IMG/VR virus record: IMGVR_UViG_2734482780_000014 | Span: 1 to 13,691 of that record | DNA: 13,691 nt | Direction: 5' to 3' (one strand) | Source: a virus | Lineage: Duplodnaviria; Heunggongvirae; Uroviricota; Caudoviricetes | In this document: positions 1 to 13,691 of the stretch, piece by piece | Layout: each line of letters opens with the position of its first letter | How positions within the stretch are numbered: position 1 is the first letter of the stretch | The notes under the pieces: generated by a model | What the model was told of the DNA's origin: nothing | Database searches by the model: none | What the model saw: only the letters and a program-made list of their open reading frames with translations | Position numbers and translations under genes: made by a program

Positions 1-1254
1 ATGCTGGAACAAATGGGCATTGCCGCGAAGCAAGCCTCGTATAAATTAGCGCAACTCTCCAGCCGCGAAAAAAATCGCGTGCTGGAAAAAATCGCCGATG
101 AACTGGAAGCACAAAGCGAAATCATCCTCAACGCTAACGCCCAGGATGTTGCTGACGCGCGTGCCAATGGCCTTGGCGAAGCGATGCTTGACCGTCTGGC
201 ACTGACGCCCGCACGGCTGAAAGGCATTGCCGATGATGTGCGCCAGGTGTGTAACCTCGCCGATCCGGTGGGGCAGGTAATCGATGGCAGCGTACTGGAC
301 AGCGGCCTGCGTCTTGAGCGTCGTCGCGTGCCGCTGGGGGTGATTGGCGTGATTTATGAAGCGCGCCCGAACGTGACGGTTGATGTCGCTTCGCTGTGCC
401 TGAAAACCGGTAATGCGGTGATCCTGCGTGGTGGCAAAGAAACCTGTCGCACTAACGCGGCAACGGTGGCGGTGATTCAGGACGCCCTGAAATCCTGTGG
501 CTTACCGGCGGGTGCCGTGCAGGCGATTGATAATCCTGACCGTGCGCTGGTCAGTGAAATGCTGCGTATGGATAAATACATCGACATGCTGATCCCGCGC
601 GGCGGGGCTGGTTTGCATAAACTGTGCCGCGAACAGTCGACAATCCCGGTGATCACAGGTGGTATAGGCGTATGCCATATTTACGTTGATGAAAGCGCAG
701 AGATCGCTGAAGCATTAAAAGTGATCGTCAACGCGAAAACTCAGCGACCGAGCACATGTAATACGGTAGAAACGTTGCTGGTGAATAAAAACATCGCCGA
801 TAGCTTCCTGCCCGCATTAAGCAAACAAATGGCGGAAAGCGGCGTGACATTACACGCAGATGCAGCTGCGCTGGCGCAGTTGCAGACAGGCCCTGCGAAG
901 GTGGTGGCGGTTAAAGCCGAAGAGTATGACGATGAATTTCTGTCATTAGATTTGAACGTTAAAATCGTCAGCGATCTTGACGATGCCATCGCCCATATTC
1001 GTGAACACGGCACACAACACTCCGATGCGATCCTGACCCGCGATATGCGCAACGCCCAGCGTTTTGTTAACGAAGTGGATTCGTCCGCTGTTTACGTTAA
1101 CGCCTCTACGCGTTTTACCGACGGCGGCCAGTTTGGTCTGGGTGCGGAAGTGGCGGTAAGCACACAAAAACTCCACGCGCGTGGCCCAATGGGGCTGGAA
1201 GCACTGACCACTTACAAGTGGATCGGCATTGGTGATTACACCATTCGTGCGTAA
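1..1254 (+). CDS. proA: gamma-glutamyl phosphate reductase (glutamate-5-semialdehyde dehydrogenase), complete 417 aa
   Basis: Full-length ORF starting at ATG at position 1; translation recognised as E. coli ProA over its whole length (from memory); followed by thrW as in the E. coli proBA-thrW locus. Confidence 0.96.
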
Positions 1255-1299
1255 ATAAAACCGGGTGATGCAAAAGTAGCCATTTGATTCACAAGGCCA

Positions 1300-1328
1300 T
1301 TGACGCATCGCCCGGTTAGTTTTAACCT
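1300..1328 (+). promoter_or_regulatory. candidate sigma70 promoter for thrW (-35 TTGACG 1300-1305, 17-nt spacer, -10 TAACCT 1323-1328)
   Basis: Hexamers read directly about 40 nt upstream of the tRNA 5' end; the -10 match is weak. Confidence 0.3.
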
Positions 1329-1368
1329 TGTCCACCGTGATTCACGTTCGTGAACATGTCCTTTCAGG

Positions 1369-1444
1369 GCCGATATAGCTCAGTTGGTAGAGCAGCGCAT
1401 TCGTAATGCGAAGGTCGTAGGTTCGACTCCTATTATCGGCACCA
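1369..1444 (+). tRNA. thrW: tRNA-Thr (anticodon CGU), 76 nt with encoded CCA
   Basis: GCCGATATAGCTCAGTTGGTAGAGCAGCGCATTCGTAATGCGAAGGTCGTAGGTTCGACTCCTATTATCGGCACCA: cloverleaf with D-loop AGCTCAGTTGGTAGAGC, anticodon loop TTCGTAA, T-loop GGTTCGACTCC. Position immediately after proA fits thrW. Confidence 0.95.
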
Positions 1445-1458
1445 TTAAAATCAATAAG

Positions 1459-2622
1459 TTATACATCATTAGTACCTTCCTTATTTTTTGACTGGGACAA
1501 ATTTGGGACCGATGGGTTCAGGATCGAGTCTATTTGCCGTGCGTGTTCGGTAAGGTGATTAGGTGCAAGGTGAGCATATCGACGAACCATTTCGATAGAC
1601 TCCCAGCCTCCCATTTCCTGTAAAACTGACAACGGGACTCCGGCTTGAACCAGCCAACTTGCCCAGGTGTGTCTCAAGTCGTGAAATCTGAAATCATCAA
1701 TACCAGCCCGTCTCAGCGCCGCTTTCCAGGCTGTGTTTGCGTCATACCGCATCTTCCTTACTGTTGGCGCTTTCGTTCCGTCTGGTTTGGTACAGCTTTC
1801 CTTGTACACAAATACCCAACGGTGATGATTCCCGATTTGTTTTTTCAATACGCGACATGCAGTATCATTCAGCGCAACGCCAATTGCGCGGTTTGATTTA
1901 CTCTCTTCCGGGTTTATCCATGCCACCCGGCGCTGCATATCTATTTGTTGCCATTCAAGGTTGATGATGTTCGAGCGTCTTAAGCCTGTTGCCAGTGCAA
2001 ATTCAACAACAGACTTTAATGGCTCCGGACATTCATCAATCAGCCTTTGTGCTTCATGGGGCTCCAGCCAGCGGATCCGTTTATTCTTTGGTTGAGGCAC
2101 TTTAATAATTGGTGCCTTATCCAGCATTTTCCATTCACGCTCTGCGGCTCTTAGTAGGGCCTTTATAAATGAAAGATGCGTAGCCTTCGTTGCAACGGAC
2201 GCTGGTTTTGGCGTGTATTCTGGAACAGGTTTCCCTTTTTTTCTGCATGCTTCTGCCCTGAGTTTCCAGTTTTCCTCATGACGCCGGTTCGTCATTTTCT
2301 GCATTGCTGAATAAATTTTTGATTCAGTAATGTCTCTTAGTTGCATTCCTGCGAAATGTTGAAGCCAGAATCCGATCCGGCTTTTGTCATCGTCCAGTGA
2401 TTTTTTATGTGCTTTCTCTTCAAGCCACCTGACACACGCTTCCTCGAACGTTATATCAGGTATTTCACCAAGTTTGCTGACCCGCCATGCTTCAGCCTTT
2501 AGCTTGTCATGGAGTTCTGTCGCCTGCCTTTTGTCCTTTGTTCCAAGAGACTGTTTAAATCTTTTACCGTTCGGCAATGTGAAACTGGCGTACCATATTT
2601 CACCTCTGCGGAAGAGTGACAT
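1459..2622 (-). CDS. int: tyrosine site-specific integrase, P22 Int-like, 387 aa
   Basis: 387-aa ORF adjacent to thrW; translation closely resembles phage P22 integrase as remembered (MSLFRRGE...HDLRHTWAS...VRRYAHL); ATG at 2622 with SD AGAGGAAAG upstream. Confidence 0.94.
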
Positions 2623-2849
2623 TTTCTTTCCTCTGTTATGCCATCACCCGCGCTCACCTGGACAGTATGCAGCGGAGACTGAAGAGCCGCAATGCAGGCT
2701 TGTCGTGTTGTGAGGTAAGGAGATTTATTCTTAGTGGGATCTTTGCGTGTTGCCTGAAGACGCCCTGTGCGTATCCAGTTAATGGCAGTCGGTCTGGATA
2801 TCTTGAGAAAATGACAGGCCTCATCGAGTGTGAGGCTGTATGGCTCCAT
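2499..2849 (-). CDS. xis: excisionase (P22 Xis-like), 116 aa from internal ATG at 2849
   Basis: ATG at 2849 preceded by AAGAGGTGAAATA; product [38 protein letters not shown]... resembles P22 Xis; overlaps the int 5' end by 124 nt. The ORF-track start at 2933 is probably an upstream extension. Confidence 0.8.
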
Positions 2850-3154
2850 TATTTCACCTCTTGCTGTGACATTGTTGAAAAATGGATACCAGCTCGTTGC
2901 TGCCAGACGATCCAACCGAGAGTCATATCCCATGCCATGTATTCGTTATCGCCGTTTTTTGCTCTCCGACGATCTACTAAGTCACCGAAACGCTTTTCCA
3001 TGAATAATTCATAAGCTTCGCGTTCATCTGGTTCTACTTCCAGAGATAGGAGTGCGATTTCATAAGCACGGCGCTCAATATCGTCTCGCACGTCAAGGCT
3101 GCTGATACGCTCTTTAATTTCTTTAATCAGTTCTTTGTCGGTAAAAGTGGTCAT
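2849..3154 (-). CDS. yfdT: hypothetical early-left phage protein, 101 aa (YfdT-like by size and position)
   Basis: ORF with ATG at 3154; its stop overlaps the xis ATG (TAATG). Symbol assigned from remembered CPS-53 gene sizes and order (yfdP 120, yfdQ 274, yfdR 178, yfdS 120, yfdT 101), not from alignment. Confidence 0.55.
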   Translation of the reverse strand: MTTFTDKELIKEIKERISSLDVRDDIERRAYEIALLSLEVEPDEREAYELFMEKRFGDLVDRRRAKNGDNEYMAWDMTLGWIVWQQRAGIHFSTMSQQEVK

Positions 3155-3516
3155 TATGCTCCAGCCTCCGGTGCTTTTGGCATTACTGCCCAGTGAGTGA
3201 TATTGACGTTTTCAAGGTCCCCGACCTGAAATGTCCACTGCCATTCTCCGGTTTCTTTTTGTCCCCAGGTGTACCAGAGAGAACGCCAGCCAATTAGCCA
3301 GCCTTCTCCGTTAGCATCGAATAACAAAACACTTTCATTTGCTGGTGGCAGTTCAGTTGACACTGGTATTACTTTGTTTTCCTGTGCTGCACATTTAGCT
3401 TCAAGCGCATCGAATTTACGCACCAGGTATTCAGCATCTGTTTCATTTACTTTCAGATCTCGCGGTACACATCTCCCACGAAGAAACCCTTCCATTTCGA
3501 AAACATTCATGCGCAT
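3154..3516 (-). CDS. yfdS: hypothetical early-left phage protein, 120 aa (YfdS-like)
   Basis: ATG at 3516 (second ATG at 3510 forms an ATGA overlap with the upstream stop); its stop overlaps the next start as TAATG at 3154. Confidence 0.6.
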   Translation of the reverse strand: MRMNVFEMEGFLRGRCVPRDLKVNETDAEYLVRKFDALEAKCAAQENKVIPVSTELPPANESVLLFDANGEGWLIGWRSLWYTWGQKETGEWQWTFQVGDLENVNITHWAVMPKAPEAGA

Positions 3517-4043
3517 TTGCGTAACTCCGATAACTCGTTAAAGCGTTCCATAAACATCCCGTAGGCATGGCCCGGTGCCAGTGGAATCACGTTGAACATC
3601 TCTGTTGCCGGGATACCTTCCAGTACAGGCCAGAAAGAGCCATCATCAAGCCCGAGATCGCGGCGTTCGGTTGCCAGCATGATGAGATCGGCATATTTCA
3701 CGGGCGTACTCATAACTGGGGGTAACCCGTATTTCTCACGGATTACGGCGTCTATTTTTTCTTCCATTTGTTTATAGTCAGGAAGAAGGCGTTTCAGTGG
3801 TGCGGGAATGTCCTGGCAATACGCTTCTGTTGCATCATGCATTAACGCTTCAAAAGCAAATTCCTGCGGCACCAACTGGCTGCAAAGAACCGCATGTTGG
3901 GCGACGCTGTAGAAGTGCGAAAGATGACCGGCAAAGCGACAGATATTTGAAAGGGAAACCGCGATATCGTTAATATCGATGTCGTCTTTATTTATCCTGT
4001 CATAATAAAAATGCTTCCCGGAAAAAGTTTTAATAAATGACAT
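3507..4043 (-). CDS. yfdR: HD-domain phosphohydrolase (YfdR-like 5'-deoxynucleotidase family), 178 aa
   Basis: H...HD signature (..LMHDATEAY..) in the translation; ATG at 4043 preceded by GGAG 8 nt upstream. The ORF-track start at 4070 is a GTG extension. Confidence 0.8.
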   Translation of the reverse strand: MSFIKTFSGKHFYYDRINKDDIDINDIAVSLSNICRFAGHLSHFYSVAQHAVLCSQLVPQEFAFEALMHDATEAYCQDIPAPLKRLLPDYKQMEEKIDAVIREKYGLPPVMSTPVKYADLIMLATERRDLGLDDGSFWPVLEGIPATEMFNVIPLAPGHAYGMFMERFNELSELRKCA

Positions 4044-4170
4044 TTTGTTCTCCACGTATATGCGCTGCACCGCGCTGAATTCTGGTAAAAAGAATCCCTC
4101 ACCATCCGGCGATTATTGAGTAAATTACGTTTCCATAAATGCCCCCGCAGGGGCATTTGCAGTAATGAAA

Positions 4171-4995
4171 TCAGGCGGTGAAAGTACCAATAAAGGTTTC
4201 TACTTTGCTGTCCTTGAATTTCTCAACAAGCAGATCACGAAATTCGTTAGCCATTTCTTCCTGCACCGCCTCCAGCTGAATAATGCGCAGAACCAGTACA
4301 GGACGATCGCCAGTGATAATACTGAGGCGTAATTTAAACGGACGTTCTTTCAGACCTTCAAACGGAACGCATTTAAATTCAAATGCCACTGGCATAATGT
4401 CTTTGATCTTCGCTTCGACAGACTCCATCAGGGAGCGTTTGCCGCTGAAGTCATTATCTTCAAAATCAGCGGTCTGGTTTGCTTCAATCGTGATTTTACG
4501 GACAGCCGCAGCCGCTTTTGTTGCCTGAATAGCGTCACCATTAGCATCAAAGCCCACAAGATAGTCGGCCCAGTCTTCAATCCATTCTGCCAGTGACTTC
4601 TGGGAGTTACGCTCGCCGTTAACAGACAACAGAGCAGAGAACGGTGCTGTCTTTTTCAGTTTGAGTGTGGCGGTGTTATCTGCGTGACCTGGTTCATCAA
4701 TAGTACCCAGGTTAAGCACACTGACGGCACGCATATTATCAGCATCGATAAAGCAGCGGGTGCCTTCATCTGCAAGATCTTTAGAATAACGGGTAAAGTC
4801 ATCGATGCTGGCAGTGGAAAGCGCACCACGGAAACGGAAGCGATTTAAATTAAATTTTTCCAGATCATGAATGCGGAAATTCTCAGGCAATGCCACAGCA
4901 TCGGCACCAATCTTACTGATAATTTCATTAACACCCTGAGCAGAAATAAGGGCATGGATTTGATTAATTGAGGTTGCGTCTAAGTTCTGAGACAT
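4171..4995 (-). CDS. yfdQ: hypothetical phage protein, 274 aa (YfdQ-like, DUF2303-type by recollection)
   Basis: ATG at 4995 with SD GAGGA upstream; size and position match yfdQ of CPS-53. Confidence 0.65.
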
Positions 4996-5060
4996 AATAA
5001 GTCCTCACTATATAAAGATATTCAGTGATGAGATAAATAATCAGTTAATTAAAAACGATA

Positions 5061-5423
5061 TTAACGACCTGCTGCGCGGAGTTTTCCGTCAGGTTCACCG
5101 GCAAGAGTCAGTAACTGTCCCTGGTCTTCCTGCAGAATAGTCAGGCGACCACCGCGATTGACATACATCGGCGTTTCGGTGGTGTCTTCTTCGGAAATTT
5201 TCCCGCGGTTAGTCGGGCGAACATATGAGAGTTTGTGTTTGATTTTCACACGGTTCTCATCAAATGGTTCGATTTCCAGGTTGAGTGAGACCTTACCTTT
5301 GGTTTTCGTGTTCATCACACCGGAAGCGACTTCACTGAGAACTGCGCCGATTTTGGTTTCAAATACGCCGCCGTCCAGCTCCCCGATAAATGCCTGCACA
5401 TCAGTACTGCGTTCGCTAGCCAT
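5061..5423 (-). CDS. yfdP: hypothetical phage protein, 120 aa (YfdP-like)
   Basis: ATG at 5423 preceded by GAGGAG at 8 nt. The upstream 106 codons of ORF 5061-5741 are Arg/Cys-rich read-through of GC-rich non-coding DNA and were excluded. Confidence 0.65.
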   Translation of the reverse strand: MASERSTDVQAFIGELDGGVFETKIGAVLSEVASGVMNTKTKGKVSLNLEIEPFDENRVKIKHKLSYVRPTNRGKISEEDTTETPMYVNRGGRLTILQEDQGQLLTLAGEPDGKLRAAGR

Positions 5424-5471
5424 TTTGCTGCTCCTCATCATATCGACCCTGCAAGGCCGATTAGTTTCTCC

Positions 5472-5560
5472 ACAAAACAGAGAAGAACACCTGCGGTGGC
5501 AGCCGCCCGGATGGATTGGGTTATGAGCCCGTCGTCCGGTGATGCTCTTCTCTGTTTTGT
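5472..5560. repeat. perfect 14-bp inverted repeat (ACAAAACAGAGAAG / CTTCTCTGTTTTGT) flanking a 61-nt GC-rich spacer
   Basis: Arms at 5472-5485 and 5547-5560 read directly; lies in a ~470-bp region with no credible ORF on either strand. Confidence 0.7.
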
Positions 5561-5824
5561 AAAAAGGACGGTACCAGCCGGAAGCAAGGGTACAAACTGG
5601 TACCTCCAGGACTACACACAGCATAAAGTTGTGGTGCCGGGTGCCTCCCGGTGCCTGGCGAAGGTTGCACACCAGACGGGTGGGTATCCACAGAAGGTCG
5701 ACTGTCAGCCTCAACCTTAACCCGCGTGCGCTGAGCCGCATTCACCACAACGCTAAGGATTCTCTCTGGTTAAAAATACTTAGCTGTTATGTGCCTGCTT
5801 TTAGCCACATCAGGCGAGGTGGAC

Positions 5825-5876
5825 CTGGTTATTCCCCAACAACAAGGATTCGGTTAATCTGGTTATCCCCAACAAC
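5825..5876 (+). repeat. two direct repeats CTGGTTAT(T)CCCCAACAAC with 34-bp period, immediately upstream of the 5892 start codon
   Basis: Copies at 5825-5843 and 5859-5876 differ by one T; further GGTTA motifs at 5767 and 5853. Confidence 0.7.
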
Positions 5877-5891
5877 GCAAAAGGAAAAGAA

Positions 5892-6326
5892 ATGTCCGGT
5901 AATATCTACACGCTGTACAAATCCCACTGTGAAAATGTTGGAAAGTATCGGGGCATTGAAATCAGTGGGGTAGTGTCATCAGTCGAAATAAGCAAAGTGG
6001 AATCAAGGGCAACATTACTTACTCTTCTGGACCTTGTCTTACATGAGCACCGGAAGAAATTCGGCACTCCCTATAATCAGTTGAATGGGAAAAAGGCTCT
6101 GGTTCACCTTATTCTGATGAAGCATCACTGGATGCCAAAACAGATTAATGAGATGAAATTTGATGAACTTCTTCTTTCAATTCAGGATGAACTCACACTT
6201 GATAAAATAAGCGTAACCGCCCAGAAATTTTTAGATTATCGAGACTGGAGATCACAAATTCATCACTTTGATGATTTTGACGAAAATGAATGGGATCCTA
6301 ATTTGTCTGCACAATATCTAAAGTAA
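5892..6326 (+). CDS. hypothetical protein, 144 aa; AT-rich moron opposite to the leftward early operon
   Basis: ATG at 5892 with AAGGA 6 nt upstream; clearly more AT-rich than flanks; no recognisable motif; acidic C-terminus. Confidence 0.7.
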   Translation: MSGNIYTLYKSHCENVGKYRGIEISGVVSSVEISKVESRATLLTLLDLVLHEHRKKFGTPYNQLNGKKALVHLILMKHHWMPKQINEMKFDELLLSIQDELTLDKISVTAQKFLDYRDWRSQIHHFDDFDENEWDPNLSAQYLK

Positions 6327-6504
6327 CATCCTGTGATAAAACCGTGATTTCCTGATCCAGTTTTTTTAAGGAGTCTATTGTTTCCTGTCGATAAGACAGC
6401 ACTTCACGAAGCTGGTTTATAGCTGCCAGCTTCTTTGCCATCCACTCGTAAATTTCCTCATCTGTGTAGCCAGGCGCGACGATTTTGGGTTCTGTTTTGT
6501 GCAT
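6298..6504 (-). CDS. hypothetical small protein, 68 aa (first gene downstream of candidate pL; acidic, coiled-coil-like, not N-like)
   Basis: ATG at 6504 preceded by GAGGAG at 9 nt; the ORF-track start at 6519 is TTG. Its 3' end overlaps the 144-aa ORF convergently by 29 nt. Confidence 0.6.
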   Translation of the reverse strand: MHKTEPKIVAPGYTDEEIYEWMAKKLAAINQLREVLSYRQETIDSLKKLDQEITVLSQDVTLDIVQTN

Positions 6505-6548
6505 TTCACATCTCCTCAAGTTATCAGTTACTTGTTGATGGGGACCAG

Positions 6549-6561
6549 ATTGTTAAAGAGC
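6549..6561 (-). promoter_or_regulatory. rrn-type boxA-like element GCTCTTTAACAAT in the pL leader RNA, immediately 3' of a hairpin
   Basis: Minus-strand sequence matches the remembered rrn boxA core (TGCTCTTTAACAAT...) at 13 of 13 positions; lies between candidate pL and the first leftward gene. Confidence 0.5.
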
Positions 6562-6563
6562 TA

Positions 6564-6587
6564 AGCGTCCTGTAGGGCGCTTTTTTG
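6564..6587 (+). terminator. intrinsic terminator for plus-strand transcripts (stem AGCGUCC/GGGCGCU, loop UGUA, then UUUUUU)
   Basis: 7-bp stem with one G-U pair followed by a T6 run on the plus strand; the same hairpin on the minus strand precedes the boxA-like element. Confidence 0.55.
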
Positions 6588-6671
6588 TTGCTAACGAATC
6601 ATCCTGGACTTCATATGCCCCAGGCGGCTACTTCGTGGGCGTCCTGCCTGTTTGTTGTTTCGCTTGGGTAC

Positions 6672-6699
6672 ATTATGTATCTCAAAGGTACATTATCAA
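6672..6699 (-). promoter_or_regulatory. candidate pL (-35 TTGATA 6699-6694, 16-nt spacer, -10 CATAAT 6677-6672) overlapped by GGTACATTAT direct repeats (putative OL)
   Basis: Hexamers read on the minus strand just downstream of the repressor terminator; GGTACATTAT copies at 6667-6676 and 6687-6696 overlap the -10 and -35. Confidence 0.45.
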
Positions 6700-6702
6700 G
6701 TA

Positions 6703-6727
6703 TAAAAAAACCTGCCGAAGCAGGTTC
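6703..6727 (-). terminator. intrinsic terminator downstream of the repressor gene (stem AACCUGC, UUCG tetraloop, U7 tract)
   Basis: Minus strand reads GAACCUGC-UUCG-GCAGGUU followed by UUUUUUU, 12 nt after the repressor stop. Confidence 0.7.
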
Positions 6728-6738
6728 ATAAACATTGA

Positions 6739-7413
6739 TTAGGCTTTGATTTTGTATCTTCTTGGTTTTCCTGAGAAAATCACTGTACCAATTATAGAGC
6801 AATTACCGTTGATCTTAATGTAAGGCTCAGGCCAGTTTGGGTTTAACGCTTTGAGATAACGCTGTGTCCCATCTTCTATCAACCTTTTGAAGGTGGTTTC
6901 ACCTGTATCGTGCATCAATGCAATAACGTCGTCACCGTGGCAGGCAGGTACTTCAGGATCGACAAAAATCATGTCTCCCGGGCGGTACTCATCAATCATT
7001 GAATCACCTATCACCCGCAAGATATAAGTCATTTCCCCACAGGGTACAGGGCAGGGATACGTTTCTGCTGTGCTCAAATCAACCTCAGAATATCCAACTT
7101 CTTTCCATGCTCCGGCCTGTACCCATGATATGACAGGGACTAATGTGATTTGTTTATTAGTGATTGAAACATCAGGTTTTTTTGTGATGTTCGTTGTCTG
7201 GTGTTCTTGATCGAGCCATCCGACAGGCAGGTCGAAACATTTTTCGATGTGTCGTGCCATGCTGTCACCGATATTTTTAGTAGCACCATCTCCCATAAAC
7301 CTGCTGGTCTGGGTTGGCTCGCGATCAATCATAGTGGCAAAGGAAGAATTCCCGCCAACACCATCTCTCAGTTTTCTGGCGTTAGACCGCCGGATGTCAT
7401 GGATTGTTTTCAT
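6739..7413 (-). CDS. CI-type prophage repressor with C-terminal S24 LexA-like peptidase domain, 224 aa
   Basis: C-terminal region resembles P22 C2 (..VIGDSM.. and LNPNWPEPYIKINGNCSIIG vs remembered LNPQYPMIEINGNCKIIG); divergent to a cro-like gene across an operator region. Confidence 0.9.
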   Translation of the reverse strand: MKTIHDIRRSNARKLRDGVGGNSSFATMIDREPTQTSRFMGDGATKNIGDSMARHIEKCFDLPVGWLDQEHQTTNITKKPDVSITNKQITLVPVISWVQAGAWKEVGYSEVDLSTAETYPCPVPCGEMTYILRVIGDSMIDEYRPGDMIFVDPEVPACHGDDVIALMHDTGETTFKRLIEDGTQRYLKALNPNWPEPYIKINGNCSIIGTVIFSGKPRRYKIKA

Positions 7414-7428
7414 AACGAAATTAAAACC

Positions 7429-7449
7429 CTTGTACCGTTAAGGTACAAG
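7429..7449. promoter_or_regulatory. operator palindrome CTTGTACC-GTTAA-GGTACAAG (GTAC-N7-GTAC)
   Basis: Perfect 8-bp inverted arms in the repressor/cro intergenic region. Confidence 0.6.
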
Positions 7450-7453
7450 TATC

Positions 7454-7481
7454 TTGAAGGTTCATTTCAATCATGTAATAT
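7454..7481 (+). promoter_or_regulatory. candidate pR (-35 TTGAAG 7454-7459, 16-nt spacer, -10 TAATAT 7476-7481)
   Basis: Hexamers upstream of the cro SD GGAGG (7489-7493); the second operator overlaps the predicted start site. Confidence 0.4.
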
Positions 7482-7498
7482 GTACACCGGAGGTACAT
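7480..7498. promoter_or_regulatory. operator palindrome ATGTAC-ACCGGAG-GTACAT (GTAC-N7-GTAC)
   Basis: Same half-site and spacing as the 7429-7449 palindrome. Confidence 0.55.
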
Positions 7499-7503
7499 AT
7501 TGT

Positions 7504-7704
7504 ATGAAAGCGTATTGGGACTCTTTAACCAAAGAACAGCAGGGCGAGTTGGCCGGAAAAGTTGGCTCAACACCTGGCTACTTACGGCTGGTTTTCAATG
7601 GCTATAAAAAAGCCAGTTTTGTGCTGGCTAAAAAACTTGAGCAATGCACGTCAGGTGCAATTACGAAATCTGACTTAAGACCGGATATCTATCCGAAAGA
7701 TTAG
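7504..7704 (+). CDS. Cro-like HTH regulator, 66 aa (YdaS/Cro family with LRPDIY motif)
   Basis: ATG at 7504 preceded by GGAGG; divergent from the repressor. The larger ORF-track call 7201-7704 is antisense to the repressor and only its last 66 codons are credible. Confidence 0.75.
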   Translation: MKAYWDSLTKEQQGELAGKVGSTPGYLRLVFNGYKKASFVLAKKLEQCTSGAITKSDLRPDIYPKD

Positions 7705-7735
7705 CAGAACACTTTCAATTTTTAACCACAGAACG

Positions 7736-8299
7736 ATGAGGCTAATCGTGGGTAAGCATCACTGGAAAATAGAAAAACAGCCTGAGTGGTACGTGAAAGC
7801 TGTCAGAAAAACTATCGCGGCGTTGCCGGGTGGTTACGCTGAAGCGGCTGACTGGCTCGATGTAACAGAAAATGCTTTATTCAACCGCCTTCGTGCAGAT
7901 GGCGATCAGATTTTCCCGCTGGGATGGGCAATGGTTTTACAGCGTGCTGGTGGCACTCACTTCATTGCTGATGCTGTGGCGCAGTCTGCAAATGGCGTCT
8001 TTGTGTCTCTTCCTGACGTCGAGGATGTGGACAACGCCGATATCAACCAACGCCTGCTGGAGGTCATTGAACAGATCGGCAGTTATTCAAAACAGATTCG
8101 TTCAGCAATTGAAGACGGTGTAGTGGAACCGCATGAGAAGACAGCAATTAACGACGAGTTGTACCTCTCAATTTCGAAGCTGCAGGAGCATGCAGCACTG
8201 GTCTACAAAATTTTTTGCATTTCAGAAAGTAATGACGCCCGCGAGTGTGCAGCTCCGGGCGCCGTGGCGTGTCGTGACTGTGGAGAAACTAACGCATGA
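7736..8299 (+). CDS. hypothetical phage early protein, 187 aa (possible CII-like/YdaT-like regulator; function not verified)
   Basis: First gene after cro; ATG at 7736 (alternative GTG at 7748 after GAGG); its stop overlaps the next start as ATGA. Confidence 0.65.
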
Positions 8300-8634
8300 A
8301 CAGTTTAACAACACACTACCGTCGCTCGCAACTTATTGCGCTTCCTGTACCGGGTGGAAAAGCGAAGGTGGAGTATTGCTATGCAGTGAATGTACCAGGT
8401 GACAGGGAAATTGTAACCCACAGCTTTGCAGAGTGGGCTGTGGGGGATTTCAACCGGCAGAAGGAGGCAGTCCTTTGCGACAAGTTAACCGCTGGTTCAA
8501 AGATCACTACGGAGTGCCCGTCAGAGTCATTCGTTGGGAGCCGGAAACACAACGGGTTATCTACCTCCGTGAAGGCTATGAGCATGAGTGCTTCAGCCCG
8601 CTCGAACAGTTTCGTCGTAAATTCAGGGAAATAG
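8296..8634 (+). CDS. hypothetical protein, 112 aa (possibly YmfM-like by size and position; see frameshift finding)
   Basis: ATG at 8296 overlaps the upstream stop; the C-terminal third is Ser-rich and low-complexity, while an alternative frame (8433-8654) reads more protein-like. Confidence 0.45.
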
Positions 8635-8643
8635 AGGTCGGTC

Positions 8644-8886
8644 ATGAGCACTAAATTAACCGGCTATGTATGGGATGGTTGCGCAGCGTCAGGCATGAAA
8701 TTATCCAGCGTGGCAATTATGGCCCGCTTGGCTGATTTCAGTAATGACGAAGGTGTGTGCTGGCCATCAATTGAAACCATTGCCCGCCAGATTGGCGCGG
8801 GGATGAGTACCGTCAGAACGGCTATCGCACGGCTGGAAGCAGAAGGCTGGTTAACGCGTAAGGCGCGTCGCCAGGGTACCGGGTGA
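8644..8886 (+). pseudogene. N-terminal winged-HTH fragment (80 aa) of a phage replication initiator (O-like), truncated
   Basis: ATG at 8644 with GAGGT upstream; translation has the HTH pattern typical of phage replication-initiator N-termini (recognised from memory, not aligned); the ORF stops after 80 aa and is followed by tail-fibre sequence. Confidence 0.55.
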
Positions 8887-8950
8887 TGACTCTCCGGGAG
8901 AAAACAAAAGCCAGACCGACTACTGGCAGGAGCTGAAAGAGGGCTTCTCC

Positions 8951-9166
8951 GTGGTTGTCATACTGAGTAACGGGCGTGATGAGCGCGGTCAGTTTGCCTC
9001 GTATGATGTGGTGGACGATGTCCGGCAGATGCTCTTTAAGGCCCTGCTGGGCTGGAACCCGGCTATTACAGAGGGTGGTGTTGTTGCGGCAACGACTAAA
9101 CCTGCAGGTGCGAATGAAACACGCCCACGAAATGTCGCTTTTAACTATATTGTGAGGGCTGCATAA
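8951..9166 (+). pseudogene. C-terminal fragment of a side tail fibre protein (variable part)
   Basis: Ends ...NETRPRNVAFNYIVRAA with stop overlapping the tfa ATG (TAATG) as in stf-tfa pairs; the frame is open only back to 8855, so the N-terminal bulk is missing. Confidence 0.6.
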
Positions 9167-9768
9167 TGAATAACGCAGAATTAAACAGTGAATTAATTGC
9201 CACTATGGCAGGAGAAATTACTGTTTATAACTTTGACGTCATGAGTCGGGAGTATATTTCAGCTTCAACTGAATATCTTGCTGTTGGTGTCGGCATTCCG
9301 GCATATTCCTGTTTAGATGCTCCAGGCACCTACAAAGCTGGTTATGCAATCTGCCGCTCTGCAGATTTTAACTCATGGGAATATGTACCAGACCATCGCG
9401 GTGAAATTGTCTTTAGCACCGAAACAGGAGAATCAAAAGAAATCACAGCACCGGGTGATTACCCTGATAATACAACCACTATCGCCCCGTTAACGCCATA
9501 CGATAAATGGGATGGTGAGAAATGGGTGACGGATACCGAGGCACAGCATAGCGCCGTAGTAGATGCAGCAGAAGCACAGCGCCAGTCGCTGATTGATACA
9601 GCAATGGCTTCTATCAGTCTGATTCAACTGAAATTACAGGCCGGACGGAACCTGACGCAGGCAGAAACCGCCCGACTTAACGCTGCGCTGGATTACATTG
9701 ACGCGGTGACGGCAACAGATACCAGCACCGCACCGGATGTCATCTGGCCTGAACTGCCGGAGGCGTAG
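9166..9768 (+). CDS. tfa: tail fibre assembly protein (Tfa), 200 aa
   Basis: C-terminus ...DYIDAVTATDTSTAPDVIWPELP matches the conserved Tfa C-terminal motif. Confidence 0.88.
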   Translation: MNNAELNSELIATMAGEITVYNFDVMSREYISASTEYLAVGVGIPAYSCLDAPGTYKAGYAICRSADFNSWEYVPDHRGEIVFSTETGESKEITAPGDYPDNTTTIAPLTPYDKWDGEKWVTDTEAQHSAVVDAAEAQRQSLIDTAMASISLIQLKLQAGRNLTQAETARLNAALDYIDAVTATDTSTAPDVIWPELPEA

Positions 9769-10171
9769 GCCATTCAATATCTGGCGCACTGGAAGTATCG
9801 ACCAGTTCCAGTGCGTCCAGATAATCCAGCCACAAATTATATTGCGCCAGTTCCTCACCTTTCAGACGACCAATCGCCGCTTTACCAGGCCATTGTTTAC
9901 TGTTCATGTATTCGTTGGCCTGATTAACTAATCGCTGTTTATTTGATTCAGCGATTGAGATTAATTCTTCGCTGGTAAGTGGTGGCGCATCCTGCCATGC
10001 TGGAAAACCATTTTTATCTGAACCAAGTATTTTACCATCAGGCCATGCAACTCCTGCGAACTCAGAATAAATAGTAAAGTTTATTTTCGTAGCGTTCTCA
10101 GGAATGGTTTGGCTATCTGGTGAAATATAAAATCCCGAATCAGAGGGATTAAAATAATATGTCTTTTCCAT
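9740..10171 (-). CDS. tfa: tail fibre assembly protein (alternate, opposite orientation), 143 aa
   Basis: C-terminus ...WLDYLDALELVDTSSAPDIEWPTPP; convergent 29-nt overlap with the plus-strand tfa, as in invertible tail-fibre segments. Confidence 0.88.
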   Translation of the reverse strand: MEKTYYFNPSDSGFYISPDSQTIPENATKINFTIYSEFAGVAWPDGKILGSDKNGFPAWQDAPPLTSEELISIAESNKQRLVNQANEYMNSKQWPGKAAIGRLKGEELAQYNLWLDYLDALELVDTSSAPDIEWPTPPAVQAR

Positions 10172-10173
10172 AG

Positions 10174-10572
10174 TTAATACCCCACAGCCATCCAGTAAAT
10201 TGAATTTGTTGTAGCAGAAGTGTAAGTAAATCTGATTTTAGTTCTGTTGGTACTTCCAATATCAAAGCCCACAGAACGGGCAGAAGGATCATTAGTTGAA
10301 ATAAGAGCGTTTACCGAACGACAAGCAGCAGGGAAAGCTACAGGTAATGTTATATCAACTGTTCCAACACTTCCTCCGGTTGGTGAGACAGAAAAACTCC
10401 CCCATTGAATAATCATCCCCCCAGGTAATTTCTGGTATCCATTGGCGGTCAATGAGTTACCAAAGCTGTTTATATCCGGTACCTGATTTTCTCCTGTCCC
10501 CACATTCCTCTTTGCCGCTTCTCCCAAACCAACGTTTATGAAAATGCAGAAATAACGAGCAAATGGCATCAT
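10174..10572 (-). pseudogene. alternate tail fibre C-terminal variable domain (inverted orientation), lacking the constant N-terminal part
   Basis: Immediately upstream of tfa' on the minus strand; the N-terminal about 18 codons read through the recombination site and pin leader. Confidence 0.6.
10519..10544. promoter_or_regulatory. Hin/Gin/Pin-type recombination site (hix/gix-like) TTCTCCCAAACC-AA-CGTTTATGAAAA
   Basis: About 20 of 26 positions match the remembered hixL consensus, including AAACC/GTTT half-site cores and AA centre; located just upstream of pin. Confidence 0.5.
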
Positions 10573-10598
10573 TCCTGCTTTTGTCAGGGAGATCTACC

Positions 10599-10790
10599 AT
10601 GCTTATTGGCTATGTACGTGTGTCAACAAATGACCAGAACACAGATCTACAACGTAATGCGCTGAACTGTGCAGGATGCGAGCTGATTTTTGAAGATAAG
10701 ATAAGCGGTACAAAGTCCGAGAGCCTAGGGCTGACACTGCTGTTCTTGATGCAAATTAAAGGATTTAATAGTGAGTTGTGGCCTTACTAA
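10599..10790 (+). pseudogene. pin: truncated DNA invertase (Pin/Gin/Hin serine recombinase); homology covers only about 42 N-terminal residues
   Basis: MLIGYVRVSTNDQNTDLQRNAL.CAGCE.IFEDK.SGT... is nearly identical to the e14 Pin N-terminus as remembered, then diverges (..SESLGLTLLF..) and stops at 10790; ATG at 10599 after AGGGAG. Confidence 0.85.
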
Positions 10791-10799
10791 TGTAAGGCC
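10780..10799. terminator. hairpin GGCCTTAC-TAAT-GTAAGGCC between the convergent pin' and GmrSD-like genes (possible bidirectional terminator)
   Basis: Perfect 8-bp stem; moderately T-rich only on the plus-strand side; sits where pin homology breaks down. Confidence 0.3.
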
Positions 10800-10823
10800 G
10801 CTATAATCATTTTATTAATTGCA

Positions 10824-12713
10824 TTAATCGTGTTTTGGCCATACTTTCAATGCAATTTCCCCCAACTTTTTACCCCGCTCCAGGATTTCACCTTCATCCC
10901 ATTTATCCTTAAGTATAAGTGGTATGTTCAGTCGTAGATTGGTGTGGACGATGAGAGCATCACGTTTTTTCAGAAATACAGCATTCTGAACAGAACGGTT
11001 TACGCTAAGGTTAAGCAAAGTTAGATTTCCCAACGTAGCTATCGCTTGTTGCCGTTTCCTTACCAGTAGCTGTTCAGGGGTAAGATCTGTTCCAGACAGA
11101 ACAATTTGGTTCAATACCGTTGCATCTGAATTTGTCACCATATGACCATTTTCGAGAGGCCAACAGGAATACCAACTTTGAGGCATAAGATGATCGATAT
11201 CGAGATTGGAAAGATTTGGAACATCAGGCTTCTCTGTCTTCACTTGGCGACAAAGTTCTCTTTCAAGTTCCGTTAACATTGAGCGCATTTTCGGTGCGTC
11301 GAGCCTGCCAGGATAAAGTGGAGCATTGATGCAAGCATTGAGAAATTCTGAGTCACCAGGCCAACGTGAGGCTTCGCCATTTAAGCTATTGAGGATATTA
11401 CGTAACTCAACACTGGAAATTTCCGTTTTAGACAAGTGCCGCAATACATTCATAAATACATTGTTGTAATTCTTTGGCGTCAGGCCACATACGGCTCTTC
11501 GTACTACGTAGGAGACAAGATCATTATACATGGCTGCTTTCTCACCATCGGCGATGTTAGCTATCGAAATGAACAAAGCAAGCGGATAAAGTGTCGTCAC
11601 ATCATAGGCTGCGATGCGATGTCCAAAGTGTGAGATGGGGGTTGTGCCAAAACCACCAACCAATTCTTTATATTGTGATGCATATTGTTTGAGGCGCTTT
11701 ACTTGCAGATCAGCTCGTTGTGAAGGCAAGTCCTTACTTACATAATCACGATACTCATTGTAAAGACGAGACAGATCAATTTCACGTTGCCTTTCTGATT
11801 GCAATGTCGCATGCACTAGCCACTCCATGCGTGGTTTATTAATACGTCCACGGCGTTGCCTTTCCGACCAGTATGTATCTTCAAAGCTCTTCCACTCATT
11901 TTCATATAATTCAATAGCATTAATATTTTCATGCTCAGCGCACATAAAGATGTAGTTGCGAATAAGATCCGTGGCATGAAGTTCCGCCCCTCGGCCATTT
12001 AATGTTTCAAAAATTATTTGGGCATCATCTTCAGCTTCGAGAAATATGCTTACCAGTTTCAGATCCGTCAAGACAGCCTCAATTAGTGCTACAGCATTTT
12101 CATGTGGTGAGTACTTTTCTATTTTAATCCATTTTATAAAGGCTTCAGTAAAAAACCATAATGCCTCTAGTGACGGCGGGTGGTTGAAATGTTTACGTAA
12201 CGTACCATGTTGCGTGAAGCTATCAGAAAATACATCACGGAGATCGTCAATGTTTTCAACATTAAAACTTTGAATAAAATGAGTTTGGTCTCGAAAAGTT
12301 GGCCACAGTTTGAAGCATTCTACCTTTTTATTTCGCATAGTTGCTTCGTTTGTATTTTTCAAGCAAGTCAATACTAACCCTTCCAAATCAGAAAGGCCTG
12401 TAGCACGCAATGATAATCGAATGGATGCCAGAATATATTGAAGAGTGGTTAAACGTTGCTGGCCGTCAATAATATGTATGGTATCTACACCTAACAAGCT
12501 GTTTTTGAGTTGAGGTTCCAGCACCACCGCGCCAAGGAAATGGGGAGTTGGTTTTGTTCCCAAAAGTCGGCTATGTGCTTTTTCGAAGATATCCTCCAGC
12601 AAAGCTGACCATTGGTTTTGTTGCGTCCATACGTAGGCACGTTGATAGAATGGAACACGATATTGTCGTTGATTTTGGAAAAGTTGCTGGATGGTTAGCG
12701 TTTCGGATTTCAT
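10824..12713 (-). CDS. GmrSD-family type IV restriction endonuclease-like protein (N-terminal DUF262, C-terminal DUF1524 His-Me finger), 629 aa
   Basis: N-terminal VPFYQRAYVW and IIDGQQR motifs; C-terminal DIDHLMPQSW nuclease motif; ATG at 12713 with AGGT upstream; AT-rich compared with proA. Confidence 0.8.
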   Translation of the reverse strand: MKSETLTIQQLFQNQRQYRVPFYQRAYVWTQQNQWSALLEDIFEKAHSRLLGTKPTPHFLGAVVLEPQLKNSLLGVDTIHIIDGQQRLTTLQYILASIRLSLRATGLSDLEGLVLTCLKNTNEATMRNKKVECFKLWPTFRDQTHFIQSFNVENIDDLRDVFSDSFTQHGTLRKHFNHPPSLEALWFFTEAFIKWIKIEKYSPHENAVALIEAVLTDLKLVSIFLEAEDDAQIIFETLNGRGAELHATDLIRNYIFMCAEHENINAIELYENEWKSFEDTYWSERQRRGRINKPRMEWLVHATLQSERQREIDLSRLYNEYRDYVSKDLPSQRADLQVKRLKQYASQYKELVGGFGTTPISHFGHRIAAYDVTTLYPLALFISIANIADGEKAAMYNDLVSYVVRRAVCGLTPKNYNNVFMNVLRHLSKTEISSVELRNILNSLNGEASRWPGDSEFLNACINAPLYPGRLDAPKMRSMLTELERELCRQVKTEKPDVPNLSNLDIDHLMPQSWYSCWPLENGHMVTNSDATVLNQIVLSGTDLTPEQLLVRKRQQAIATLGNLTLLNLSVNRSVQNAVFLKKRDALIVHTNLRLNIPLILKDKWDEGEILERGKKLGEIALKVWPKHD

Positions 12714-13298
12714 TGTTTACCTATAAGTGACATTCCACAAGAGTAAGAAATTCATCTGAGTCAGAATAATCATTTTTATGTAGTCATGATACAGTGTATT
12801 TGTTGCTGGTGAAGTAAAAACGAGAAATCCCGCTTTTGAATGCTGACGTGCTACGGCTTCATTGGATATTCTCTTTTGTCTGTTCTCCATTGCGTCGGTG
12901 TTTTGTCGAGATTGTTAGCACACTGTTGCTGCTGTTTTTTTATCCAAGCGCTGCTAAATCATTGTAGATGGCACTATCGGGTATTGAAGCTGCAGACATG
13001 TCGTATACAATAGTCAGCTGCGACTGGCTGGTGAACTTCCGATAGTGCTAGTATTGAATTATGTCAAGCCGTTATCGATTTTACGTATTTTTTGTATGAG
13101 AGGATTTGCACCTCCTCCCACCGCTCCTCCATGACTTTACGCCACTGTCTCTAGGGCTGCTAAGTGCCAGGAACGGACATTGGTGGTATGCAGGATCAGA
13201 GGGGAATAAAAAACTTATTATATTGATTAAGATGGGGCTATTCTTGGCGACTTAAGCCGATATGATACAGATCAAGTGTGCTCTTTTAGGGTTCCATA

Positions 13299-13691
13299 TT
13301 GATTAACAGAAAATTAATTGTAGAGTTAATCGTATATTTCATGAGAGATGAATTGATTCGTGGATTTTCGAAGTGGGGGCGTCGGGTAAAGACTGACCTG
13401 ACACAGATGGATGAATCTTTCCCAATAATGCCGATTTTTAATGAGCACATCAATTCTATTTTCAAAGTGTATATTCTATTCAATGAAAAATATCACATCA
13501 CAAAAGCTTTAAAAGCAAAAGAATTCATAATAAACTTCATTGGAGAGAGAGAGGATTATATTGATGATGAATACATTATCGCAGAACTAAAAAATACACA
13601 AACAGGTTTGAGTATAAACAAAAAAACCATTCCTACATCAGCGCTTGAGAAAATATCCGATTTTTACAGAATAAAAGAATACCTATTTTAG
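13299..13691 (+). CDS. hypothetical protein, 130 aa (116 aa if it starts at ATG 13341); very AT-rich, divergent from the GmrSD-like gene
   Basis: ORF ending with TAG exactly at the window end; TTG at 13299 follows AGGG by 7 nt, ATG at 13341 has no SD; no recognisable motif. Confidence 0.5.
   Translation: MINRKLIVELIVYFMRDELIRGFSKWGRRVKTDLTQMDESFPIMPIFNEHINSIFKVYILFNEKYHITKALKAKEFIINFIGEREDYIDDEYIIAELKNTQTGLSINKKTIPTSALEKISDFYRIKEYLF

Follow-up and report, generated by a model that had tools for sequence, protein, structure and literature searches.

The right end of e14 in Escherichia coli K-12 carries tail-fibre genes, the pin invertase gene, mcrA, whose product McrA is an HNH enzyme, and attR. 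Lambdoid prophages are said to hold ‘exchangeable effector loci’ downstream of their tail-fibre genes, as Tobe et al. reportedly described in 2006. P2-like phages and P4-like satellites, too, have hotspots for antiviral systems (Rousset et al. 2022, PMC9122126). Here we compare with these systems a stretch of 13,691 nucleotides recorded as viral DNA (IMG/VR record IMGVR_UViG_2734482780_000014, positions 1 to 13,691; the window, for short), which ends in a 130-amino-acid (aa) open reading frame (ORF) lying next to a GmrSD-type (DUF262-DUF1524) type IV restriction gene. An earlier reading of the letters alone, the original prediction, had taken this ORF for a gene with a possible link to its restriction neighbour. 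We find instead that it is very probably the dead 3' part of a single-gene cargo cassette encoding a 300-aa protein, and not a small gene in its own right.

The window resembles e14 in its integrase, in its early genes (DUF2303/YfdQ, an S24 repressor and a CII-like protein), in an invertible pair of tail-fibre-assembly genes accompanied by a Pin-type invertase, here truncated, and in the placement of a type IV restriction gene between invertase and attR, an arrangement for which sister modules exist at icd, ssrA and thrW. Unlike e14, it encodes a GmrSD/DUF262-DUF1524 enzyme in place of McrA and has a second cargo slot after the restriction gene, holding the decayed 300-aa gene. The likeness to the P2 and P4 hotspots lies in conserved flanks around interchangeable cargo, which here comprises retron Ec67, a type ISP restriction-modification (R-M) enzyme, a GIY-YIG protein and the 300-aa gene; the differences are that the lineage is e14-like/lambdoid with a Mu-like tail and that the slot adjoins attR.

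The 543-bp deletion and the gene that it truncated

The ORF runs on the plus strand from a TTG at 13299 to the stop codon TAG at 13689-13691, where the window also ends, and it is divergent from the GmrSD-type gene (10824-12713, minus strand) across 585 bp. Its guanine-plus-cytosine (GC) content is 31.0%; that of the whole window is 45.8% and that of the GmrSD-type gene 41.6%, and the 400-bp stretch of lowest GC in the window profile is found at 13201-13600 (32.8%); ORF calls and GC profile therefore agree with the original prediction that nothing else in the window is as AT-rich. The ORF was also rightly described as devoid of a recognisable motif, there being no Pfam match for the 130-aa product.

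The history of the ORF became apparent from a megablast search of window positions 12714-13691 against 5426 complete E. coli genomes. The whole stretch is present in 15 of these genomes, and in five of the 15 the match is split, with the subject longer by 543 bp. In E. coli AH65 (locus L004), for example, query positions 1-605 align to 4001-4605 and query positions 601-978 to 5144-5521, and the intact allele (L004 4619-5521) encodes a 300-aa protein (RefSeq WP_129468631.1). The initiation region of this intact gene reads GGGAGATAAGC-TTG, that is, a GGGAG ribosome-binding site followed by a TTG start codon. In the window, as seen in a three-sequence comparison, ...AGAAAATTAAT is joined to TGTAGAGTTAATCG... 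at one of two TTAAT pentamers; a split blastn alignment and the side-by-side sequences place this microhomology, the deletion junction, at 13314..13318 on the plus strand. The deletion would have arisen by microhomology-mediated slippage or by illegitimate recombination.

Of the 543 bp lost, 18 nt are leader, with the ribosome-binding site among them, and the rest is codons 1-175, beginning with the TTG start. What remains are five codons derived from the leader of the longer gene (MINRK), joined in frame by the deletion to parent residues 176-300 and the stop codon. The frame of 130 codons survives because 543 is divisible by three and because a TTG in the leader, 33 nt upstream of where the parent gene truly starts, happens to share its frame. 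This leader TTG is not conserved at the corresponding site of the Morganella and Yersinia cassettes and is therefore not a native start. Thus the ORF start at TTG 13299 is an artefact; the original prediction had no means of seeing the truncation. Annotation pipelines begin the remnant at ATG 13341, yielding 116 aa.

A length of 300 aa is ancestral, since it is shared by homologues across eight genera and by the clusters of a profile search. Forty-nine homologues from Escherichia, Klebsiella, Pantoea, Yersinia, Leclercia, Enterobacter, Morganella, Tatumella and metagenomes are almost all 290-308 aa long. The profile search, over 1.84 billion cluster representatives (clusters at 50% identity), returned 4770 clusters at E<=1e-3, of which 2897 also pass E<=1e-10, and nearly all family members among the matches listed measure ~280-310 aa.

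Conservation was computed over 98 diverse family members, in which Y143, R150, H155 and P159 are invariant and N59, N94, N99, D109, H110, N151, Q154 and W196 are conserved in at least 90%. With the exception of W196, every one of these residues falls in the deleted part, and the motif KLRNxxQHCGMP, strictly conserved in the family, is lost from the window ORF. An AlphaFold 2 model of the intact protein (predicted local distance difference test score, pLDDT, 92.9; predicted template-modelling score, pTM, 0.87) has an N-terminal beta-hairpin and a long helical bundle (30-156), then hairpins and helices. Mapped onto this model, the deletion removes strands 4-12, 21-27 and 161-170 together with helices 30-156; it cuts within the 161-185 hairpin, so that the bundle and three of the six strands are gone.

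Taken together, these observations are those of a pseudogene. An intact orthologue at the same locus still has the start codon and ribosome-binding site that are missing here; the family-invariant residues have gone with the deleted part; and sister copies have acquired secondary disabling mutations, as under relaxed selection. We infer that the remnant is non-functional. The window ORF is a fragment and, in a functional sense, a member of no protein family. Three points weigh against this view. The frame, which most sister alleles have lost, is still open in the window. TTG 13299 is preceded at 7 nt by a weak AGGG (AGGG-N7-TTG), and low-level translation of the C-terminal fragment might thus still occur. 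Finally, the deletion allele is common (~50 contigs carry the 116-aa form and at least 134 an 89-aa form), perhaps because it rode along with a successful prophage or because it still brings some benefit.

Spacer, fragment and accessory slot

The 585-bp spacer between the ORF and the GmrSD-type gene had been described as an AT-rich intergenic region. Its GC content is 41.5%, equal to that of the GmrSD-type gene, so this description fails. Neither is the spacer a single unit: it is a mosaic of three pieces with separate origins, namely the 5' region of the GmrSD-type gene, a homologue of the lambda b region and the leader of the cassette.

The first piece (12714..12890, minus strand) was delimited by promoter scan and substitution pattern. 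It has a promoter-like TTCACC-16-TATCAT at 12813-12786, ~70 nt upstream of the GmrSD ATG. Compared with a 93%-identical locus, L003, there are three substitutions in 12714-12890 versus 28 in 12891-13170; the piece moves with the GmrSD-type gene. A 57-aa ORF within it (12717-12890, minus strand) stops 3 nt short of the GmrSD start codon and overlaps the promoter-like site. As a candidate upstream partner this ORF was rejected: it has no family match, and it is probably non-coding because all three substitutions are non-synonymous.

The second piece (12988..13181, no strand assigned) is non-coding and 82% identical over 194 bp to lambda 24160-24352, between ea47 and ea31. Unlike the b region of lambda, it is only a relic between two cargo genes. 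The segment occurs in 5271 of the 5426 complete E. coli genomes, with up to nine copies in each; it is lambdoid backbone, widespread along the borders of prophage cargo. Its copy in O157:H7 lies alongside the T3SS (type III secretion system) effector genes espM2 and espW, adjoining attR at ssrA, in which it resembles the effector loci of lambdoid prophages. Other copies (L013 3001-3184, L014 3001-3158, L015 3001-3097, L016 3001-3110 and L017 2501-2693) were recorded, and at prophage ends copies lie by cargo that includes SMODS+SLATT, sitABCD, T3SS effectors and DinI-like genes. A 63-bp part of the segment (87% identity; window 13025-13087, L001 22506-22568) recurs in the core chromosome, where it lies between ykgJ and ecpE and within no annotated prophage.

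The third piece (13171..13313, plus strand) is the left end of the cassette with its 5' leader, the boundary of the slot having been drawn from L004 versus L002 and L003. The block held in common with Klebsiella, Morganella and Yersinia starts at about L004 4446, equivalent to about window 13159, and its 170-nt leader is as conserved as coding sequence across Escherichia, Klebsiella, Morganella and Yersinia (leader coordinates L004 4446-4618, L005 7829-8000, L007 7833-8000 and L010 7837-8000). No sigma-70 consensus was found in the leader, and a structured leader is not supported by an alignment of four sequences, in which the covariation term was unfavourable.

Could the spacer nonetheless hide a functional small RNA, or a regulatory leader driving downstream cargo? 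Such an element would account for the conservation of 12988-13181, a segment present in nearly all E. coli genomes and often positioned just upstream of SMODS+SLATT or of a gene for a 256-aa hypothetical protein; a promoter-like TTGAAG-16-TACAAT also sits at its left edge (12984-13011). Against this, no Rfam family matches at E<=1 in 12600-13691 (at gathering score, tRNA-Thr is the sole match in the whole window), and the segment folds no better than shuffled sequences on either strand (z +0.86 and -0.89). The region has five promoter-like sites, in line with what shuffled sequence gives (3.7 +/- 1.7), and it yielded no terminator. Other prophages keep only the first ~100 nt of the segment, followed by a convergent DinI-like gene, and the segment is simply a homologue of lambda b-region backbone. 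The small-RNA version was rejected for want of an Rfam match and of a thermodynamic signal, and we regard a functional non-coding element of either kind as unlikely. The small RNA svsR/C0293 maps to the cI gene and is unrelated to this locus.

The fate of the gene in other genomes bears on whether the fragment might have been kept. Some part of the gene is present in 17 complete E. coli genomes: intact in five, with the 543-bp deletion in ten, and with ISKpn26 inserted at the 5' end of the gene in two (locus L024 2874-4831). Two deletion alleles were inspected in detail (L001 14628-14897 and L025 2523-2792). Each has lost one more base after an A6 run and is annotated as encoding 89 aa, and that of L025 has a further +1 in an A7 run. 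Seven of the ten deletion alleles align over 372 bases and not 373. In the larger sister group, a frameshift replaces the last ~27 residues. Contigs counted in a collection of 15 billion proteins tell of the same decay: the window product from ATG 13341 is recorded on its ~50 contigs as a ‘hypothetical protein’, the 89-aa sister form is the frameshifted one, a 266-aa form truncated by an insertion sequence occurs on 68 contigs, and intact forms occur on at least 170. Shortened lengths on record are 89, 116, 218, 254, 257 and 266 aa, with further truncated forms within 218-275 aa. The window carries the earliest stage of the decaying allele. Several independent breakages of the 300-aa gene are thus seen in E. 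coli, by the 543-bp deletion, ISKpn26 insertion, 1-bp frameshifts and other truncations.

It is against this background that retention of the C-terminal fragment (parent residues 176-300) as a decoy or dominant-negative form against incoming full-length copies, or as a sensor-domain relic with a part in regulation, has to be judged. The open frame, the weak AGGG-N7-TTG and the internal ATG at 13341 would allow for a product, and the number of contigs bearing the 116-aa form is in keeping with one. However, the frameshift in the larger sister group argues against selection on the product, the native ribosome-binding site has gone, and the fragment in the model lacks three of its six partner beta-strands and the whole bundle. 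We consider retention for any of these roles quite unlikely, and the ORF is better understood as the remains of a deletion.

The same holds with greater force for a partnership with the restriction gene, in which the ORF would be a genuine small gene acting on GmrSD as partner or regulator, be it an immunity, anti-toxin or specificity factor. The two genes are arranged divergently over a common spacer, and the GmrSD and ORF sequences stand side by side in 15 complete genomes. The ORF is, however, a deletion derivative of the 300-aa gene with frameshifted sister alleles, and neither neighbour needs the other. The intact gene is found apart from GmrSD in Klebsiella, Morganella, Yersinia and distant taxa: none of seven homologue contexts from other taxa has an adjacent GmrSD gene. 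At least 157 genomes carry the block formed by invertase remnant, GmrSD gene and ~457 bp (at least 80% of the junction probe), and elsewhere this block is followed by unrelated cargo or by nothing. In e14-like prophages at thrW, ssrA and icd, the followers include a retron Ec67 reverse transcriptase (RT)/endonuclease or a type ISP R-M enzyme; ydfV'-flxA-‘4-fold beta flower’; a DinI pseudogene with a GIY-YIG protein; or attR directly (loci with other cargo or none: L002, L003, L026, L027 and L028). The conserved adjacency or co-occurrence that marks a two-gene GmrSD system is thus not seen, and the partnership put forward in the original prediction is very improbable. Least credible of all, and virtually without merit, is the converse history, with an ancestral short form that grew into the 300-aa gene through a 543-bp insertion. 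Its sole attraction is the formal symmetry of any indel. Against it, homologues from eight or more genera, and thousands of clusters, have a length of ~300 aa, the conserved core lies inside the 543 bp, and the short form has no ribosome-binding site of its own.

Because the parent gene is found without GmrSD and the GmrSD module is found without the parent gene, the two are separate tenants; the parent cassette and the GmrSD gene independently occupy a variable accessory slot of an e14-like cryptic prophage that is integrated at thrW. This slot, at the attR end, is situated after the tail-fibre/invertase end and before attR. Homology among its variants ends at window 13170 and resumes at L004 5748, ~270 bp before attR. 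Conserved flanks with mutually exclusive, unrelated cargo are the mark of a defence hotspot, as are, by annotation, the retron Ec67 RT/endonuclease and the type ISP enzyme (RefSeq) and the assignment of GmrSD to PADLOC mREase_IV; this tally of cargo is a sample of ~8 loci and not a census. No paper was found that describes this slot, and the main text of a survey of E. coli defence islands makes no mention of thrW, proA, yagP or GmrSD. In E. coli PK8276 (L002 6470-8632), the slot is taken by a retron Ec67-family RT/endonuclease that has a 53-aa ORF upstream of it, and a second, P22-like prophage lies in tandem at the attR copy of thrW.

The cassette itself is 1.3 kb long with 32% GC (L004 ~4446-5753, equivalent to 3353364-3354671 of NZ_CP058302 from E. 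coli AH65). A block of 1.16-1.31 kb is 81-88% identical at the nucleotide level in Klebsiella, Morganella and Yersinia, where the GC content of the gene is 31-33%. In Klebsiella it lies in the replication/nin region of a lambdoid prophage, between a lambda-P-like replication gene and dinI; in Morganella it is in a prophage, right after the integrase; and in Yersinia it is in an integrative island beside HD, TIR and Mrr genes. More distant members stand by a type III R-M system and an AAA_23 gene, by a HEPN_RiboL-PSP gene and an integrase, or alone. Searching the cassette for terminal repeats gave only one weak 22-nt direct repeat (77% identity).

Prophage setting of the window

The window is a segment of an E. 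coli chromosome, beginning with proA at 1-1254. The tRNA-Thr(CGT) gene thrW follows at 1369-1444 (the Rfam tRNA-Thr match of the window scan), and downstream of it a tyrosine integrase gene lies on the minus strand (1459-2622). Early genes of e14 type come after the integrase, encoding DUF2303/YfdQ, an S24 repressor and a CII-like protein, and then two opposed tail-fibre-assembly genes, the invertible pair. The left neighbour of the GmrSD module is the N-terminal fragment of the Pin-type DNA invertase gene (10563..10790, plus strand), whose translation opens MLIGYVRVSTNDQNTDLQRNAL; at the corresponding position in sister loci, RefSeq gives the label ‘recombinase family protein, incomplete’. 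The GmrSD-type gene (10824..12713, minus strand) is intact, and its 629-aa product is identified by Pfam (GmrSD_N, 8.3e-34; GmrSD_C, 1.7e-18) and, over its full length, by PADLOC (mREase_IV, 1478 bits).

No virion genes other than those for tail fibre and tail-fibre assembly are present in the window, and no head or tail-shaft genes were identified in 1459-10790. With these as its sole virion genes, the region is therefore a cryptic prophage remnant of ~12 kb, a stripped e14-like element at thrW. Extension of the sequence to the right, a check that the original prediction had asked for, could be made through sister genomes, in which an attR copy of the 3' half of the tRNA-Thr gene is reached ~500 bp beyond the window end; beyond attR come a LysR-type pseudogene at the position of yagP and then paoDCBA. 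The region of the 130-aa ORF consequently lies in the last kilobase of the prophage, adjoining attR. The suggestion that the ORF might open an independent accessory island thus holds in part: it does belong to a separate 1.3-kb cargo cassette, but it is the last decayed gene before attR and not the start of an island. Coverage of the window in any single place by a complete E. coli genome reaches 74% at best.

The parent family and its possible role

It is the parent gene, and not its remnant, that may be of wider interest. HEPN-domain proteins of abortive infection and toxin systems include AbiD/F, AbiV, RnlA/LsoA and HepT, and the HEPN signature is reportedly Rx4-6H with a polar residue after the arginine (Anantharaman and colleagues, 2013). 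The parent family conforms to this pattern. R150 and H155 are invariant across the 98 members, and N151 and Q154 are the polar positions conserved in at least 90%, and R150-N151-x-x-Q154-H155 lies in a helix of a helical bundle. A second motif, [RK]TxLDH at residues 105-110, lies in the same bundle, two helices before RNxxQH (150-155). Like those toxins, the family is a stand-alone gene in cargo positions of prophages and islands. It differs from them in extra beta-hairpins, in a C-terminal domain with no known relative and in the lack of a HEPN match in Pfam; the window ORF lacks the motif altogether.

It is tempting to speculate that the parent protein would be a stand-alone effector of abortive infection or defence, with R-N-x3-H serving as a HEPN-like ribonuclease site. 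A single-gene abortive-infection effector would fit with the cargo and defence-island contexts, with the pairing of a strong ribosome-binding site and a weak TTG start, and with the repeated inactivation seen in E. coli; this last also hints that the intact gene is costly or toxic. Judged from motif, fold class and genomic contexts, the parent may quite possibly be a defence gene, although we stop short of favouring this. That it is a HEPN-like ribonuclease, judged on the same grounds, we hold to be doubtful. The fuller proposal, of a widespread and as yet undescribed single-gene anti-phage (abortive-infection) system with an invariant RNxxQH, a fold with no close solved relative and a hopping, AT-rich cassette of 1.3 kb, is a possible but tentative one.

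Several results count against assigning such a function. Pfam and PADLOC scans of the 98 diverse members gave no meaningful match; with PADLOC-DB 2.0.0, searched with the parent (P0001) and 97 others, there were only single-member matches at E 0.003 or weaker, and no member matched a HEPN-clan Pfam family even at E<=10. Foldseek searches of the PDB and BFVD returned nothing at E<=1e-3. An hhalign comparison with one HEPN_MAE_28990 protein, from a Klebsiella locus, gave a probability of 0.5% and paired [RK]TxLDH, not the invariant RNxxQH, with the RNELAH of that protein. In addition, scans of the window ORF and the full-length protein against Pfam, NCBIfam and PADLOC found no match, PHROGs offered only phrog_30874, of unknown function, and sequence searches of PDB chains with two profiles gave only coiled-coil matches at chance level. 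In the literature, no paper mentions WP_129468631. The Gifsy protein GiPD474 is an ATPase and is unrelated to the locus.

In the Klebsiella lambdoid prophage (L005 12030-15881), a short GmrSD_N-only protein of 385 aa forms a pair with a HEPN_MAE_28990/RiboL-PSP protein. This pair lies in the late region, bordered by a DNA methylase gene and HicAB, 4 kb from the intact 300-aa gene.

What lies at the end of the window is a pseudogene remnant of an ordinary kind, left in a prophage cargo slot. For annotation, this means that the ‘hypothetical proteins’ of 116 aa and 89 aa, entered as genes for at least 190 contigs altogether, are fragments of one 300-aa gene, and these entries should not be read as accessory factors of GmrSD. 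Two leads extend beyond this correction. One is the slot itself, which takes defence or accessory genes next to attR in e14-like prophages (thrW, ssrA and icd). The other, wider lead is the parent family, which combines 4770 clusters, the absence of any Pfam, NCBIfam or PADLOC model, a confident AlphaFold 2 model, an invariant Arg/His motif and a portable cassette. With neighbours that include retron Ec67, type ISP, type III R-M, TIR and Mrr genes, it is a testable candidate for a single-gene defence system. If the candidate proves to be one, the inactivations by deletion, insertion sequence and frameshift in E. coli would reflect the cost or toxicity of the effector, and the window would be a fossil of an arms race.

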